Part shown: positions 21,001 to 33,000 of the stretch, piece after piece
Layout: each line of letters starts with the position of its first letter
How positions within the stretch are numbered: the stretch's first letter is position 1
NCBI GenBank assembly: GCA_963727445.1
Contig: CAVSGI010000012.1
Span: 1-64,000 of the forward strand
Direction of reading: 5' to 3'
DNA: 64,000 nucleotides
Source: an uncultured delta proteobacterium
GTDB taxonomy: Bacteria; Myxococcota_A; Polyangia; Polyangiales; B10-G4
Program-made: the position numbers

Positions 21001-24000
21001 CGGGTGATCACTACACGGAGTGGAGGTGTGGCGGTTCCCTCCTGAACGCTCCGATCTACCGATCAAGCGGCGAGCGCATACCTCTCCCGGATCTCCCATA
21101 GGGATCGGGGTGCGCTTTTCCCAGAGGAACCAACCACTCGTCCCTTGGCTTGCTCTTGGGCTGATGCTGGCCTGTGGTTCAGGGTCGACTGCCCATGCAC
21201 CACCGGCTGAGCGCCCGACGACGCTGGAGGAGACTGCGAGTCGTGTCGCTACGTGCCCGAAGACGGTGCGGATGGATTGGGCGAGCGACGGGATGGCTCT
21301 CACGTCGAGACCCAGAGTTGCGGTGCTTCCCGGGCGCAATCTCCCCCTCCCGGGTCAGGAGCTGTCTGCTCTTCTACACGAGGTACGGCAGAAGATTGCG
21401 GCCGACCTTGGGTTCCCCATCGTGAGGGATGGAGGACCAAGCGAATCCATCGCGTCTTGTGCCTGGCCCCAGAGTCCCGAGGAGAGGCTGCTCTCAGAAC
21501 ATGGTTCGACCCTAATTATTGCCCGCACATACGCCACTCTGGACTTGGAGCAACCCGCCAATCTGTACCTCGCCGTGCGGTGGGAATACCCAGGCGGGGA
21601 TTTGGCGGGCGGTCTCGAATCCCCTGGCAGCCGCGGTCACGGACGCACGTTCCTACTCCGATTGGATCACGGCCGTGGCGAACTTGGCGCCGCTGCCGAC
21701 CATGAACACAATCGGCCTTCCACCACCGAAGGTGTGGAGCGTCGCGACGCCCATCGAGTACTCCTCAGGGTTGAGCTACTCCTCCGGTGGCGCCGCGTAC
21801 CTGCACGAGGATTCTGAGCTAACCCATGCGTTGGAGGGCTGCCGAGATGCTGGAATCGCTGAGTGGGTCGAGATCGTAGTTCGGAACGGCTCGGTCGTTC
21901 GATTGACGACCTCTCCACACGACGAGCAAACCGAATTCTGCGTGCGGCAGCGTGCTGGTGGCCGTCTTCCGGCGGAAATGCAGGTTCTGCTCTATCACTA
22001 TGGCCCATCCACGGCAGTCTCCTACGTGCGGCCTCTTGAGAGTCTGCCCGCGCTGGCTTCAGCGGTGGCTCATCGACAGGTACGAGAAGAGCTGTCGCGA
22101 TGTTTCGAACGCCACCCGGAGCTTCGCGGCTATCTGTTCCGCATTCGCCTCGCAATCGATTCCCAGGGGCACGCGCACGGCCCCACAGGTCTCAATCAGA
22201 CACCGTTCTCCCAGTGCGTGATAGGCGTTCTGACGGACGCGCCATACCCATGCAGGGAGGACTCGCGCACTTGGGACGTCACCATCCAACTCTGTGGCGA
22301 GCCCCTCTCAGGACCATAGCGTGCGGACACCTCCGCGGCAGGTAGCCCGTCGGCCGCGTGGCTTGAGGCCGCGTGGCTTGAGAGGAAGTTCTTGTCGAGA
22401 ACGTGCGCCCTAGAACTCGCCGAGCAGCTCCGGTTTCCAGCCTCCACGGAAGCCAACCCCTTCACCGGACGCCCGAGTTTCCGAGAAGGTATGATCTGTC
22501 GACTCCCTGCCCGGCCGGAGGGGAGCGGAGGCCGTTCATGGTTACTACCCGCACGCGGACGTCGAACGCCGTCGCCCCCTCTTCGTGGATCACGGCCTGG
22601 TTGCCGATCGTGAGGACGCGCGCGCCCGCGGCCCCCGTCGTCTCCACGCCTTGCGCCTCCGACGACGCGAGCGTCACGATCCGGTCGAAGAGGCCATCGA
22701 GCGCTCCCTCGAACGAGGCGGAGAAGCGCGCTGGCCCGTGGCCGATGACCAGCGTCTCGGTCTTCGAAAGAACCTCGCGGCTGATGTCGCCCTGGCTCCC
22801 GTACGTGGGAAACGGAAACTGAGCCATCGCCGCGTCCTCGAAGGGCGTTCCCCGGAGCACGGAAGGATGCACGACGAAGACCACCTCCACGTCCGAGGGG
22901 AGCCTCGAGACTGCGGGATCGTCGAGGCTCAGCCCCCGCGCAACCACCGGTCGCTCTTCGACGTGCGCCGTCTCGACCGGCGCCTCCACCGGCTGCGGCC
23001 TCGTCTCGGGAGCGCCGCCACAGCCGATGAGGAGGGACACCGCGACGACGACTGGACGGGTTCTCATCCGCGCGAGTCTAACTGAGGTTCGATCGCCGCG
23101 ACGCGTCACTCCAAGTCGATCACGACCCGGCGCAGAGCGTAGGCCTTCGCGGTGGGGACGAGGAACCGGCGGGCGGCTTTGCGGAACCAGCGGTGGAGGG
23201 CGTTGCTGTTGTACATCGTGCCCGGGCCGCGACCGCCCGACTGCGAGGTCGCGAGCTCGCGGCTGGTGACGATCAGGTCGTCGCCGGCCCACTTCGCGGT
23301 GGTGCGCCGGCACGCGCGCGACGCAGCGTGCGCGAGCATGGCGCGGGTCTCGTCGTCGAGCTCGACGGCCGGCGAGATGATCAGCCTGACCCGGCCCGTG
23401 AACTGGCGGTCGGCGGCGAGCGCGTGCAGGTAGGCGTCGCGGTCGAACGGGAACGGCAGGGCTGCGAGCCAGCGCCGCTGGCGCGTGGCGAGCAGCTTGG
23501 GGAGCAGGCGGAGCAGGACGTAGATGCTGCCGACGCAGACGGCCCCCGCCGTCGCGAACATGGAGAGCACGGTCAGGACGTTGATCGTGTCGACGATCCG
23601 AATCCAGACCAGGATGGTGCCGATCATCGAGGCGAAGCACAGGGCGATGCCGCCGACGCTGACCACCATGCCGGGCATCGTCAGGGCCAGGTCGATCGCG
23701 GCCTCGTCGTCATCGGAGTCGGACGACCGCCGCTTCGCCTTGGGCGGCTTCCAACCGCGGGCCAGCTTCTTCAGGTCGGCGCGGGCGGCGGCCCGCTCGG
23801 CGTTGTCGTCGGCGTCGTCGCTGTCACTGCCGGCGTGCCCCGCGCTCATCGCGCCATCGTATCAGCTCCCTCAGCACGTCGGGGAGGCACCCGCACTTCG
23901 CGGAGCGAATGACGAAATGACGAAGAGCGTCCCCAACACCCCCCAACATCGTCTCTTCAGGTCGGCGCGGGCGGCGGCCCGCTCGGCGTTGTCGTCGGCG

Positions 24001-30000: not shown

Positions 30001-33000
30001 GACCTCACCAGGGTACCCGTTTCCGAAATCCGGGGTCGCCCGGAGGGCGGTGGACGACTAAACATAACCAGAGGTTCATGTTACCTCGCCGCCCGGCCGG
30101 AGCTCCGTGCGAGACAGCCGGCCGGTCATGCCGCTTGCATCACGCGGAGCGTGAAGTGCGTGGGCAAGCGGCCCGCCCAGCCGGCTCAATCAGCCGAACG
30201 AAGCGCGATCCGCTCCCAGCGAGCGCGGATTCCCTCGCAGTCGCTGTAGTCAGCCTCTCGGTACAACCAGATCAGTGTGTCCACAAAGGCGCGCGGGTTC
30301 TTCACGACTCGAAGTCCCTCGATGCGGCACACGACGCGACCTCGATCTGCTTTCGCGGAGCTTCTGAGGTAGACGTTGACGTGCTGCGACTCACGGACCT
30401 CCACGACTACATAGGGCGAAGATGGCTTGCTGAAGCTCAGGCTGAGGAAGTCCCCATCGGCTTCGTCCTCCTCCTTCGTCGCCGACAAGTCGCCGATGAA
30501 TCGGATCTTCTTTCGCTTAGTCGAGAGGAGCGACCATACGTCCTCCACGAACGCGTCCGAGAATCTGATATCCAAGTCCGTCTCAAGGCATTCACTGGTT
30601 AGCGTCTCATGCCACCCGTGTGGGGATTGTGAGCGGGTAGTAACCATGAACGGCCTCCGCTCCCCTCCGGCCGGGCAGGGAGTCGATACATCATACCTAA
30701 TCATACCTACTGCGAAACTCGGGCGTCCGGTGAAGGGGTTGGCGTCCGTAGAGGCTGGAAACCGGAGAGCGAACTGCCCTTCTAAGGGTCGATTGACATG
30801 CCGCAGATACCCACTCTGTCCGAGCAAGCGAGGGAGCAACAGTCTTCATTGACGGTGCATGGCTCGTCCATGCCCCGACACGCCGTGTCGGCAGTGGTGC
30901 TGTCGGCAAAGACGTCGTCCGCGCCTCCGTCGAGATTGGCATCCTCCGAGCCGCTGTCGGTGTCGGCTGTCGCATCGATGCCCCCATCGACGGGCGTCCG
31001 ACTGCTAGAACAGCTCCACAACAACAGGGCGAGCACGACAATCCATGTGTATGCGCTACAGCGGGTGGTAACCATGAACGGCCTCCGCTCCCCTCCGGCC
31101 GGGCAGGGAGTCGATACATCATACCTACATTCGTGTTCGGATAAGCGGCTGCGACTGTCGAGAAGGTTAAGCAATTCCAATTGGTTGAGCCCTGCGCGCG
31201 CTCCGTGATCGAAAAGAGCCACCGCTTCTGATCTCCTACGGGTGTCTAAGTCCAAAGGAGGGAAGCGATGGCTCGCCGCAAGCCTAGCCACATTCATCGA
31301 GCGCTGACCAGCGTGTTGCCGCGTCGTCGGATCCGGGAGCTGTCTCGCCGGCTGGGAGTCGTTCGACGCCGGCGCAAGGTTGATATCGTGTCGCTGGTGT
31401 ACGGGTTGCACAACGCGCTCGAGCACTCGTATCCATCGGTGTTCACCCACTACATGAAGGCGTCCGCGAAGCTCGGCGTGGTGATGAATGTCGTCGGCCG
31501 CGGCGCGAAGACGATTGCCATCACGCACGGAAGCCGCCACGACAAGCACCTGCTTCAGGCTGGCGCGTGGATGCGAGGGCGCCTCTTGCTCTTCGACCTC
31601 GGCTTCTACCGCGCCTCGCTCTTCGAGCAGATCGACGCCCACGGCGGTTACTTCCTCACCCGGATGAAGAAGCAAGGCAACCCGGTGCTCGTGCGCAGTC
31701 ATCTGCGAGCGCATCGCCATCTCGTCGGAATGAAGCTCCGCGATGTCCAGCAGATCGTCGACACCGACGTCATCGATGTCGACGCCAAGATGGTGTAGCA
31801 GCGCCGTCATCGACACAGGCCGCTCGTCACGAACCACTACGCCTGTTTCCGCTGCGTCGCCCTGTACAACCACGAGCTCGACCAGTGGCATCGATACGTG
31901 ACGAATCTGCCGGCGGACCTCCTCGAGGCCCATTACTTCGCGGCCGTCTACGCCGCACGCTGGGAGGTGGAGTCGCCGACGATCTCCTCGCGCTCGTCCT
32001 GTCGCGCCGAGACCGCTCGGCGCGCGCACGACGCATCGAACACTTCCTGCGCGCCGAGGCCCAAGACCCCAACGCCGCGAGAATCCCTTTGCCCTACAGG
32101 ACTCAGACGGGCACCCATCCGTGGCCTTAGGCGATCACGAATGTAGGTATGATCTGTCGACTCGCGCTTCCGGCGGGAGTGGCGGGAGGCCGTTTGTGAT
32201 GGCTTCTGTGAAGCGGCCACCCCGGTCAACAGGTTTGTCTGATTTTCGTTCTACGTCGTTGCACGTCTCCTTCGCCTCGGCTCGGGTTCGTCGTTTCGCT
32301 CATACGTGACGGGTTGTTCAGCCTTCTGTTCGCGCTCGACTGGGGCGGCATCGAGGCCGCGGCGCAGGGTGGGATTCGGTGGTGGTCGGCGCCATCTATC
32401 CATCGGCGTTCGACAGCAGCCAGCCAGCACATCGCGCTCGACCACCATAATCGGTTCCCTTCACGAAGAGCGGGTCATCGTCGGTTGCGGGTCAGGCTGC
32501 AGCAGCCTCCTCACGGCTCGCTGTCGCCTCGAAGCGCGTCCCGTCTCGCCACATCGCGTACAAGATCCCCGCGAGCTTGCGCGCCAGCGCCACCGCCGCG
32601 ATCCGCTTGCCGCGGCGTGCGGCGATGCGCTCCGTCCAGTCGCGTAGCGCCTTCGTCTCCGGTCGTTTGTGACGCAAGATCCCCCAGGCCGCTTCGACGA
32701 GCAGCGACCTGAGACGGCGATTGCCGGTCTTCGTGATGTGGCCCCGCATCCGTTTTTCGCCAGAGCTCAGCTCGCGGGGCACCAGGCCGAGGTAGGCGCG
32801 CACTTGTGAGGCGTTGTGGAAGCGACCGATCTGGTCGACCACGGCGACGAAGGTCACCGCCGTCACCGGCCCGATGCTCGGCACGGTGCACAGGCGTTCG
32901 ACGGTCTCGTCGCCCTTGGCGAGCTCGGCGAGGCGCTTGTCGGCGTCGCGGATCTGCATGGTGAGCTGCTCGAGCATCGTGAGCAGCGGCGCGACCTCGA

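Follow-up and report, generated by a model that had tools for sequence, protein, structure and literature searches.

The window, the whole 64,000-nt stretch of DNA analysed here, is positions 1 to 64,000 of contig C12 in the 9.47-Mb genome of an uncultured delta proteobacterium; other C labels denote contigs of the same genome, and G labels denote other genomes. It contains copies of a 127-nt repeat, which we call the module, together with an FKBP-type isomerase gene, a tyrosine recombinase gene, two host gene fragments, a transposase fragment and an IS110-family element (Table 1). A repeat search of the window placed five direct copies of the module between 22426 and 28569, with two more in inverted orientation (30633-30767; 31061-31128), and an nhmmer profile built from the five copies matched 49 places in the genome (14 on C12, seven each on C11, C20 and C21, four on C9, three each on C5 and C24, and one each on C10, C13, C15 and C17). 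With a 25-copy profile there were 50 matches, of which 25 span 100 or more model positions, and the reversed genome gave no match, indicating that the family described in the genome-wide survey's note (52 copies by its count) is real. The lower-GC islands to which that note assigned the repeat are also present, with some 1-kb bins at 0.52-0.62 G+C compared with a contig mean of 0.68.

Table 1. Features of the window in order of position; the term oriIS follows the assignment proposed in the text
Feature	Coordinates	Strand	Basis
Module 5' half	8995..9055	-	profile
oriIS module, outside the region first described	14918..15038	+	profile
oriIS module, full solo, first of co-oriented run	22427..22551	+	repeat search, profile
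FKBP-type isomerase gene, inter-module segment 1	23524..24363	+	PF00254, 60 bits
oriIS module, full solo, different hairpin/tail variant	24530..24649	+	repeat search, profile
Partial module, 3' part only	25043..25098	+	repeat search, profile
oriIS module, full solo, reference copy	25879..26004	+	repeat search, profile
oriIS module, full solo	26710..26831	+	repeat search, profile
Captured host fragment, PPK2 gene 3' end	26844..27194	+	Pfam, homology to C20
Captured host fragment, HEAT-repeat gene 3' end	27984..28430	-	Pfam, homology to C20
oriIS module, full solo, last of + run	28444..28567	+	repeat search, profile
Tyrosine recombinase gene	29115..29981	+	Pfam/NCBIfam, protein comparison
oriIS module, full solo, inverted, 10-nt internal duplication	30634..30767	-	repeat search, profile
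Partial module, 3' part	31064..31144	-	profile
DDE_Tnp_1 fragment, adjoining the preceding partial module	31268-31798		Pfam
Module 3' part, split by IS110 at CT of tail	32143..32208	+	borders, profile
IS110-family element, 1411 bp (transposase gene 32492-33523)	32205..33615	-	Pfam/NCBIfam, borders
Module 5' half	36237..36300	+	profile
oriIS module, then 45-nt IS110 end fragment	47505..47631	-	profile
oriIS module	54692..54820	-	profile

The module has a conserved 5' part (plus strand, (C)TCCGGTTTCCAGCC...CCGGACGCCCGAGTTTC), a short linker, a palindromic stretch rich in G+C that varies from one subfamily to the next, and finally a tail, GGCCGTT(C/T)(A/G)TG-N4-6-CTAYCNRC, which is the oriIS motif conserved in the ISCR family. 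The survey had called the repeat structured, with a covarying hairpin, a description that our folding analyses do not uphold. Compared with shuffles, the whole unit folded no better (DNA, z +0.75 and +1.79; RNA, z +0.57 and +1.16 at -43 and -45 kcal/mol), 17 distinct variants of the variable segment gave z from -1.67 to +1.10, and RNAalifold detected compensatory changes in 0 of 11 pairs across 17 copies. By eye, the arms vary by subfamily yet remain complementary (CTCCC/GGGAG, CTGCC/GGCAG, CTCG/CGAG, CCGC/GCGG), which is only suggestive of covariation.

Several copies have distinctive neighbours. The module beginning at 14918 is a variant identical over 114 nt to the ISCR-attached module on C10, the 5' half at 8995 has next to it another piece of module at 8806-8868 and part of an IS110 element at 8906-8966, and the partial module at 31064 adjoins a 280-bp stretch that is 99% identical to C20:65351-65630. 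The FKBP gene carries a perfect 171-nt tandem duplication (23768-23938 / 23954-24124) and has paralogues elsewhere with 59-80% amino acid identity. The earlier picture of short, co-oriented orphan ORFs between repeats is only loosely true: ORFs of 75 aa or longer number 97 between 18.8 and 38.3 kb, of which 7 match a Pfam family, and the matching ORFs in the array lie on both strands, two of them being gene fragments.

Searches for the repeat itself in 40 relatives were negative (0/40). No copy came up in the only genome of the same genus, which, at 68-75% DNA identity, is too diverged for empty sites to be recognized. Two pattern scans of genome_contigs and three of metagenome_contigs gave nothing beyond chance matches.

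Relationship to ISCR-type transposases

The module lies 86-87 nt 3' of the stop codon of an ISCR-type transposase gene, in the same orientation, in all four copies of that gene (C10, C24, C9 and a decayed copy on C5). The note's statement that it follows all three 487-aa IS91 genes thus stands as to position and is inexact as to the genes, because only the C10 and C24 frames are intact and the C9 gene is split into 212 and 296 aa. Identity between the copies is 92.7-96.2% across a shared stretch of 1769-1793 bp that terminates within the repeat. The 487-aa protein has Zn_Tnp_IS91 and Y2_Tnp domains, with the HUH histidines and one Tyr invariant in a transposase alignment, and among NCBIfam models it scores best on ISCR clade Ia (333 bits, cut-off 925). 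It is 42% identical to ISVsa3/ISCR2 and 40% identical to ISCR1, and has the same Zn-ribbon and HUH domains and single Tyr as both.

The last ~23 nt of the repeat match the conserved oriIS motif found downstream of the gene in ISCR1 and ISCR2 (GG.GTTT.T...T.CTAT.C). The window tails read GGCCGTTTGTGATGGCTATCAGC / GGCCGTTCATGGTTACTACCCGC, compared with GGCGTTTATTCTTCCTATAC in ISCR2 and GGTGGTTTATACTTCCTATACCC in ISCR1, the latter given as the ISCR1 oriIS 22-mer in PMC13023784. In genus g9, a homologous module ending AAGGCGTTTGTAGTTACTATCTGC lies 3' of transposase genes whose products are 59-60% identical, and, because the whole module, including its 5' part, is homologous behind this orthologous gene, the module evolves with the gene. 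These data identify the repeat, with good confidence, as the oriIS (origin-side) end of an ISCR-type rolling-circle element of the IS91 superfamily with an HUH transposase. The survey had proposed a rolling-circle IS91 end, which the motif and the g9 module bear out, and had left open which end it was, a question that these data settle.

Solo modules, arrays and captured DNA

Some 45 modules stand alone, all with one sharp left end, in agreement with the survey's proposal that the end has multiplied as solo copies, and none has kept any part of the 86-nt spacer or of tnpA. The left end reads CTCCGG in 31 of 35 solo copies and GTCCGG in 4/4 ISCR-linked ones, and the same difference (C in solo, G in ISCR-linked copies) is present in G200, from another genus. 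Since autonomous copies have G at the solo left border, a premature stop in the autonomous copies now present would not by itself yield the solo form. In G200, three solo copies match the ISCR-linked module at 100% identity for 103-104 nt. The order of five arrays, from four genomes, is tnpA - module - (X - module)n in a single orientation, with four (C9), three (C24) and eight (G200) modules downstream of tnpA and further co-oriented arrays in G348:C6 and G009:C12. Genus g9 has 3-15 copies per genome in all five genomes searched.

At the level of sequence, some X segments are shown to be pieces of chromosomal DNA cut exactly at module borders. Window positions 26844-28430 correspond to two stretches of C20:607941-608798, and the homology stops at both flanking modules. 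The PPK2 fragment (93% DNA identity to C20:608798-608449; 95% amino acid identity to residues 420-540 of 541) begins to match at the first base past the module, and the match of the HEAT-repeat fragment (81% DNA identity to C20:608387-607941; 80% amino acid identity to residues 1251-1405 of 1405) stops at the next module. Four more fragments (165-445 bp) adjoin a module left end and one (284 bp) a right end, and in none of these five does the homology resume beyond the module. At left junctions, the C that stands before TCCGG is present in the source in 5/5 cases, and the GC in 3/5, and no common motif is present at the left ends of the captured pieces. The present source loci have no module, and their identity to the captured pieces is 81-96%, so that a different genome may have been the scene of capture, or the pieces may simply be paralogues.

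We suggest that transposase from the few intact copies acts in trans, nicking at the outer border of a module, and that replication would then peel the strand leftwards. A stop at the module's own left border would mobilize a 127-nt mini-element, read-through would carry along the neighbouring DNA X (one-ended transposition), and re-insertion beside an existing module would produce co-oriented arrays. According to parts of PMC13181058 and PMC13023784, oriIS lies downstream of tnpA, ~82-100 bp of it is enough, and one-ended transposition occurs; for ISCR elements, passages of PMC6218425 and PMC9376610 state that transposition lacks experimental proof. Against this mechanism, the 4 nt 3' of the module right end, which begin with A or T in 15 of 20 cases, are unlike the CTTG/GTTC targets of IS91. 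The negative searches in other genomes, the source loci that lack a module, the missing motif at the left ends of captured pieces and the G of the autonomous copies also weigh against it.

Insertions in the module

Eight full-length DNA copies of the IS110 element are present in the genome, six with an intact 342/343-aa frame, and all eight have the insertion context ...GGCT/ATCC or ...TACT/ATCC (slash, insertion point). The survey had placed six copies next to the repeat; the association holds more precisely, with seven of the eight inside the tail at the same CT and the eighth at a bare 17-nt version of the target. In the window, the last 6 nt of the split tail (ATCCAC) resume beyond the element at 33616-33621. 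The element has DEDD and Transposase_20 domains (NF033542, 273.9 bits, cut-off 140), and in the 3' non-coding part of the window copy two stretches correspond to the flanks of the target, left and right. Target and guide-like stretches change together: in subfamily A the element has TGTGCTGGCT and TGGATAG (target TGTGATGGCT / ATCCA), and in subfamily B it has CATGTTTACT and CGGATAG (target CATGGTTACT / ATCCG), which supports the note's view of the repeat as the specific target of an RNA-guided IS110. The element inserts at CT within CTAYC, splitting oriIS, and in our reading its two stretches guide it there. A CT core at one defined site and guide-like non-coding stretches matching both flanks are features of IS110/IS1111 elements; the difference here is that an ISCR-type element provides the target, in its oriIS motif, a pairing on which our literature search found no paper. 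ISPpu9 reportedly inserts in REP sequences, and IS4321/IS5075 are said to insert in Tn21-type inverted repeats.

An integrase+IS91 unit (C11, about 7641-10110; 99.8% identical to C22 over 2463 bp) splits another repeat, as the survey reported, and C21:88-223 is the matching uninterrupted site. The unit sits in the module centre, the module being its landing site, with ~20 nt of module-like sequence at the junction. The tyrosine recombinase of the window is, again as reported, 51% identical over 200 aa to the IS91-linked integrase.

Alternative readings and known parallels

The survey likened the repeats to an integron, with the module as an attC analogue and the XerD-like integrase excising and inserting inter-module segments as cassettes. 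Integron arrays likewise have co-oriented ~130-nt repeats between short segments, and a single strand is the likely substrate in both (for IS91, a bottom-strand circle, according to part of PMC13181058). The recombinase gene lies where module orientation flips, a related integrase rides with the IS91 unit into the module centre, and passages of PMC9376610 describe an island integrase that mobilises CR2-sul2 via att sites overlapping the ISCR2 border. In the strict sense, however, the analogy fails, and we consider it very improbable. The recombinase scores below the XerD, XerC and integron-integrase cut-offs (TIGR02249, 149.9 against 265; NF011946, 98.9 against 435), it is the only such gene beside the window arrays, and its homologues are IS91-linked or far from modules. 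The orientation flip is a single case, and no integrase was found among 18 ORFs scanned in the eight-module G200 array; a role for the integrase is likewise not supported. Segment borders coincide with module ends and not with an internal crossover, inspection revealed neither an inverse core site at the module 5' end nor an R''/R' pair, the contents include truncated host genes on both strands where promoterless whole genes would be expected of cassettes, and the repeat is a transposon end.

The modules might instead be relics of repeated ISCR insertions in accessory islands, which deletions, further insertion sequences and homologous recombination from module to module then trimmed and rearranged, in which case the solo copies would be immobile and capture undirected. 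Consistent with this, 15 of the 50 matches are 5' pieces that end at varied model positions (38-91) and are followed by unrelated DNA, modules are interrupted by IS110, a DDE transposase fragment and the IS91+integrase unit, contig ends are close to the islands, and a ~80-nt left-end piece of ISCR also occurs solo; moreover, the authors of PMC3189936 ascribe most genomic IS801 fragments to rearrangements and not to one-ended transposition. Against it stand the one sharp left border of 31 of 35 solo copies, where in each of two genera the autonomous copies have a different base, and the lack of spacer and tnpA remnants, and the five co-oriented arrays, the identical G200 copies and the host-derived pieces that stop exactly at module borders also make this reading unlikely. 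An REP-like host repeat, serving as a hotspot beside or into which ISCR, IS91+integrase and IS110 merely insert, would explain why three unrelated mobile elements occupy fixed repeat positions, and IS110-family elements are known to target REP sequences (PMC12288879). It has almost no chance of being correct, given that the tail is the oriIS motif of ISCR1 and ISCR2, that the whole module is homologous to sequence behind an orthologous transposase gene in another genus, and that the same-genus genome searched yielded no copy.

The preferred reading, an ISCR-type oriIS that spreads as solo copies, which we regard as likely, is of a kind already known, of which the repeat here is a well-preserved example. 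The note's claim of novelty was too strong, since right ends of IS801 in miniature form have been published, and so has the proposal, made for ISCR28 and cited in PMC12772301, that DNA is captured between one oriIS and the next. Like ISCR elements, the element here has adjacent DNA gathered on its oriIS side; it differs in its low score on the ISCR clade Ia model, its myxobacterial host, its extra oriIS copies (a uniform 127 nt with a sharp left end, as opposed to truncated ISCR copies of varied length), the numbers of modules (up to eight per array, ~45 per genome) and its cargo of host gene fragments instead of resistance genes. In Pseudomonas syringae pv. phaseolicola, according to parts of PMC3189936, IS801 right-end miniatures of 229, 360 and 679 nt were trapped experimentally as mobile, full copies can take along 290-1431 nt of upstream DNA, origin-end pieces move without a transposase gene by one-ended transposition with a left border set by a short sequence and not a hairpin, and each fragment was newly derived from a full copy, with no build-up of such fragments. 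In the present genome, by contrast, one 127-nt form dominates in ~45 copies and co-oriented arrays, and the solo module differs from full copies at its first base.

The element here is no member of the Helitrons, since it has no helicase domain; the 5'-TC and 3'-CTRR ends and the A^T target of Helitrons would probably set them apart as well. Shared with Helitrons (PMC4778049) are the rolling-circle HUH character, many non-autonomous end-only copies and the capture of host gene fragments.

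The ~127-nt repeat and the oriIS end of an ISCR-type element

A repeat search of the window returned five direct copies of a 127-nt sequence and two inverted ones (the table lists these and other features), and a profile built from the five matched 49 places in the host genome (9.47 Mb, 27 contigs, 69% G+C). A second profile, built from 25 long copies, matched 50 places, 25 of them over at least 100 model positions, and had no match in the reversed genome. Given these counts and the empty reversed search, the family, its copy number and its clustering, all reported in the genome-wide survey's note, are real; the copies bunch near the ends of contigs C12 (which holds the window), C21, C11, C20, C9, C24 and C5. 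Aligned on the plus strand of the window, the 25 copies start with (C)TCCGGTTTCCAGCC and keep a well-conserved 5' part as far as CCGGACGCCCGAGTTTC, followed by a linker with a few alternative forms and then by a G+C-rich segment that is wholly different between subfamilies. The module ends with GGCCGTT(C/T)(A/G)TG, 4-6 variable bases and CTAYCNRC, and mostly finishes in GC.

At all four gene-linked copies (on C10, C24, C9 and C5) the repeat begins 86-87 nt past the stop codon of a transposase gene, in the orientation of that gene, and its motif finishes 210-220 nt past the stop codon. In IS91 family members the downstream side of the transposase gene is the oriIS, which contains one or two subterminal palindromes and of which ~82-100 bp are enough for transposition, according to the available text of PMC13181058 and PMC13023784. 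The tail of the repeat, GGCCGTTTGTGATGGCTATCAGC, is the same motif as the oriIS ends of ISCR2 (GGCGTTTATTCTTCCTATAC) and ISCR1 (GGTGGTTTATACTTCCTATACCC) read from plasmid records, and the 22-mer given as oriIS in the part of PMC13023784 available to us is contained in the ISCR1 end. The closest orthologues of the gene (59-60% identical) are found in four genomes of another genus, in the same order, and behind each lies a homologue of the whole repeat, including the 5' part, ending AAGGCGTTTGTAGTTACTATCTGC, which indicates that the repeat evolves with the transposase gene. Judged by these comparisons of sequence, the repeat is the oriIS-end module of this gene; the earlier identification as an IS91-type end is upheld, and the question of which end it is, left open there, is answered.

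The gene encodes IS91 zinc-binding and HUH/Tyr domains (PF14319, 63.9 bits; PF04986, 86.1 bits), and ISCR1 and ISCR2 have the same residues at H185/H187 and Y321. The best NCBIfam model was ISCR_clade_Ia, at 333.4 bits against a cut-off of 925, and the transpos_IS91 model gave 105.1 bits, under its cut-off of 125, so the predicted protein is a distant member of the ISCR group that lies outside clade Ia. Its identity is 42% to ISVsa3/ISCR2, 40% to ISCR1 and 46% to a Sandaracinus plasmid gene. The survey had described three 487-aa IS91 genes with the repeat behind them; the repeat does lie behind all four copies, but the 487-aa frame is intact only on C10 and C24, the C9 gene being broken into 212 and 296 aa and the C5 copy decayed. 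In an alignment of L016, L046, L047, L075 and the 391-aa IS91 transposase on C11, the ISCR-type proteins have a single tyrosine (R-x-C-R-Y), so that the Pfam name 'Y2' does not describe them; the C11 protein has Y-x-x-x-Y at that place. Comparison of C24 with C10 and C9 places the left border of the element ~100 nt upstream of the start codon, and C10 and C9 share a further 87 nt. G+C-rich palindromes at this left end were seen by eye only, and nhmmer --max found no similarity between it and the module. An ~80-nt piece just upstream of the left end, present in the C10 and C9 copies and not in that on C24, also occurs solo.

The repeat had also been described as a structured, covarying hairpin, a description the folding analyses contradict. 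The whole unit folded no better than dinucleotide shuffles, either as DNA (z +0.75 and +1.79) or as RNA (-43 and -45 kcal/mol; z +0.57 and +1.16), nor did 17 distinct variants of the variable segment (z -1.67 to +1.10). None of 11 pairs in the RNAalifold structure was compensatory, and a long-range pairing proposed by that program was dropped, as it leans on G-U pairs. Each subfamily does keep a short pair of complementary arms, identified by eye, of the kind a subterminal palindrome would give. No Rfam family reached its gathering score anywhere in the window, and at E up to 1 the only matches were miRNA-like chance matches on a near-perfect ~90-nt palindrome immediately left of a module (on both strands; E values of 1.6e-4 and 1.2e-3, with scores well under the gathering threshold). 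Classification as a MITE was rejected, as the module ends are unlike each other (CTCCGG... vs ...CTAYCNRC) and no flanking duplication is present in the 25 aligned copies. The repeat was found in none of 40 relatives; pattern scans gave two matches in genome_contigs, both chance matches in coding DNA, and three chance matches in metagenome_contigs, two of them helicase-like coding sequence by eye.

Features of the window and of related loci (contig names without a genome handle refer to the host, G000)
Feature	Location	Remark
Direct module copies (5)	window 22426-28569	
Inverted module copies	window 30633-30767; 31061-31128	
Captured segment	window 26844-28430	copy of C20:607941-608798
Unmatched ~790 bp	window 27195-27983	within captured segment
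Palindrome, ~90 nt	window 24431-24520	module at 24530
Tandem duplication, 171 nt	window 23768-23938 / 23954-24124	FKBP-type isomerase gene 23524-24363
Tyrosine recombinase	window 29115-29981	
Broken ISCR-type gene	C9:924649-926300	
Solo ~80-nt left-end pieces	window 56261-56338; C9:917066-917148; C20:76315-76356; C20:113384-113416	
Uninterrupted site of IS91+integrase unit	C21:88-223	
Related copy of that unit	C21:12622-12957	82% identical
Related piece of that unit	C11:17383-17494	84% identical
Relaxase units (genus g9)	L075 (G200:C4) 12204-13900; G009:C12:96964-98293; G348:C13:419075-420774	L075 on reverse strand
Shared-flank pair of modules	C12:14912 / C24:5571	match inverted
Short repeat, ~36-70 nt	C13:434801-434870; C21:29738; C10:416755; C13:35286	
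Module flanked by related stretch	window 54692	
Eighth IS110 copy	C11:5166-6575	

Solo copies, arrays and captured DNA

Solo copies, those without a transposase gene, have a uniform left end, which reads CTCCGG in 31 of 35 of them and GTCCGG in all four gene-linked copies. Solo copies of G200, a genome of the second genus (g9), start at the homologous position with the same C-for-G difference, and copies were found in all five g9 genomes searched (3 to 15 each). A left border that is uniform across two genera argues for a defined mini-element over random decay. No trace of the 86-nt spacer that separates gene and module is present in any solo copy of the 25-copy alignment.

The solo left border is preceded by (G)C: in our own tally GC stands ahead of TCCGG in 21 of 31 solo copies, and CG in the gene-linked ones. 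At all five traceable left junctions the C that precedes TCCGG is present in the source, as is GC at three of them. This pattern is compatible with a cut directly behind a short ...(R)GC word at each border, which would explain why gene-linked copies, with CG before TCCGG, are not cut short; no (R)GC word was found at the left ends of captured pieces. A nick between hairpin and tail (GGCC|GTTC) was ruled out, since hairpin and tail variants are co-inherited in the 25-copy alignment and captured DNA begins past the tail. The first base 3' of the module is A or T in 15 of 20 cases, and the four nucleotides after the module are unlike the CTTG/GTTC targets of IS91. A same-genus genome yielded no empty sites, its flanks being 68-75% identical or unmatched, and in the one pair of modules with shared flanks the match is inverted. 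Another short repeat (~36-70 nt) occurs in the host and, at 89-94% identity over ~35 nt, in other genera (G005, G001, G002), and one module in the window is flanked by a longer stretch related to it.

Modules form ordered arrays behind the transposase gene. On C9 the gene and its module are followed by three further modules, all on the plus strand; C24 has the same order on the minus strand, with three modules. In G200 eight modules lie in one orientation behind the gene over 17 kb, three of them 100% identical to the gene-linked one, and arrays in two further g9 genomes (G348:C6, G009:C12) resemble it. The run in the window consists of five full plus-strand copies and then two on the minus strand, on a contig with no ISCR gene.

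Between 18.8 and 38.3 kb the window has 97 ORFs of 75 aa or more, of which 7 had a Pfam match, and segments were compared by blastp with every ORF of 90 aa or more. One captured segment contains the final 121 codons of a PPK2 gene, at 95% amino acid identity, and the final 155 of a convergent HEAT-repeat gene, at 80%, and its homology to the source begins at base 1 past one module and ends at the next. The two gene ends, separated in the C20 source by a 54-bp intergenic spacer, here enclose ~790 bp instead, for which the rest of the genome has no match. At five more junctions elsewhere, chromosomal fragments of 165-445 bp adjoin the left (four) or right (one) end of a module, and the homology never picks up again past it. 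The G200 array carries whole genes (aldo-keto reductase, SDR, LysR, TetR and a relaxase) and gene fragments (IstB, Exo_endo_phos and molybdopterin-binding), with no integrase among the 18 ORFs scanned. Such cargo shows the pattern of rolling-circle capture rather than that of integron cassettes. An FKBP-type isomerase gene of the window contains a perfect tandem duplication of 171 nt with a 15-nt spacer. A g9 unit made up of the module 5' half and a MobA/VirD2-type relaxase gene recurs at 71-79% identity in four other genomes, with homology beginning at the module left border in three of six matches; this relaxase has no homologue among the ORFs of the host.

Integrases and a model for array growth

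The survey's reading of these runs as an integron-like cassette array, taken strictly, does not survive comparison with integrons, and the cargo just described also speaks against it. The recombinase encoded in the window is a tyrosine recombinase that scores under the XerD, XerC and integron-integrase cut-offs (TIGR02249, 149.9 vs 265; NF011946, 98.9 vs 435), and nothing we found points to its acting on the modules. GTTCATG or GTTTGTG stands near the 3' end of the module, and inspection of the 25-copy alignment for an attC core-site pair (R''...R', GTTRRRY) found no inverse core at the 5' end. The other integrase, which is frameshifted, belongs to a 2.47-kb unit on C11 together with the 391-aa IS91 transposase (392 bits, NCBIfam IS91 model). 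This unit sits in the centre of a module, of which an uninterrupted version exists; the bases directly past its integrase-side end are GAAG on C11 and CAAG on C22, and its other end carries ~30 nt of module-like sequence. Two related sequences (see table) have the same junction with the module 5' half, and the position of the unit may reflect either target specificity or co-transfer. We rejected the idea that the solo repeat is the circle junction of this unit, as the two halves stand in the order that interruption of a target would give and the uninterrupted site exists.

The identity and borders of the module, the order of the arrays and the host origin of some of the cargo are established by the sequences. 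As to mechanism, we infer that transposase from the intact copies would act in trans on any module, starting at its outer border and progressing leftward. A stop at the module's own left border would move the 127-nt unit, and read-through would carry adjoining DNA along. Such behavior resembles that of IS801 in a trap assay, from which, in the available text of PMC3189936, right-end pieces of 229, 360 and 679 nt were recovered, along with full copies that had brought 290-1431 nt of upstream DNA with them. For ISCR28, it has been proposed that a gene is captured between one oriIS and the next (as cited in the portion of PMC12772301 at hand). The arrays may have grown through insertions at the borders of modules, or copies may have accumulated and been rearranged; rearrangement is what the authors favor for most genomic IS801 fragments in the same text of PMC3189936.

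IS801 miniatures, gene gathering by ISCR elements and the two-oriIS sandwich are already in print. Our literature searches found no report of a 127-nt form that is uniform and keeps the same border in two genera, of a one-base difference between solo and autonomous copies, of traceable host fragments, or of an IS110 aimed at an oriIS motif. ISCR elements are held responsible for the gathering of resistance genes, although no one has demonstrated that they move and there is disagreement over their borders, as stated in the available text of PMC6218425 and PMC9376610. The host and genus g9 provide a natural data set. It includes intact transposase genes and uniform mini-elements, by the dozen, that can be read at both borders; the sources of host fragments are traceable, and arrays lie downstream of the gene throughout, which makes rules of cleavage and array growth testable outside clinical plasmids.

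IS110 in the oriIS tail

The genome contains eight full-length IS110 copies in two subfamilies ~91% identical to one another, six of them with an intact frame of 342 or 343 aa. The protein has DEDD and Transposase_20 domains (PF01548, 64.6 bits; PF02371, 86.9 bits) and scores 273.9 bits on NF033542, past the cut-off of 140. All eight copies adjoin the same CT; seven lie within a module tail (...GGCT|ATCC or ...TACT|ATCC), with CT on both sides. The 3' non-coding region of subfamily A contains TGTGCTGGCT and TGGATAG, for the target TGTGATGGCT / ATCCA, and that of subfamily B contains CATGTTTACT and CGGATAG, for the target CATGGTTACT / ATCCG. These stretches match the left flank at 9 of 10 nt and the right flank at 7 of 7 nt, and they change with the target in the two subfamilies. 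The bridge-RNA mechanism predicts two guide stretches that change with the target, as these two guide-like stretches do; Rfam gave no match there. The constant CT and candidate guides that track the target bear out the proposal that the repeat is the specific target of a putatively RNA-guided IS110.

Insertion of IS110 splits the CTAYC motif and so probably disables the oriIS. An IS110 that targets an oriIS, with guides shifting with the target variant, would be a clean natural case of RNA-guided retargeting and, probably, also one of a mobile element disabling another. A more far-reaching model, which we consider rather unlikely, would make the module a self-sufficient HUH recombination site, with circles of captured DNA plus module excised between one module and the next and inserted again at the outer border of a different one; ISCR elements would thereby assemble arrays that are ordered and run in one direction, as a rolling-circle equivalent of the integron conserved in at least two myxobacterial genera, and the IS110 guide RNA would have evolved to disable the site. 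The eighth IS110 copy, its transposase frame shortened to 292 aa, lies outside any recognisable module, at a site whose only likeness to the module tail is the 17 nt TGTGATGGCT|ATCCAC.
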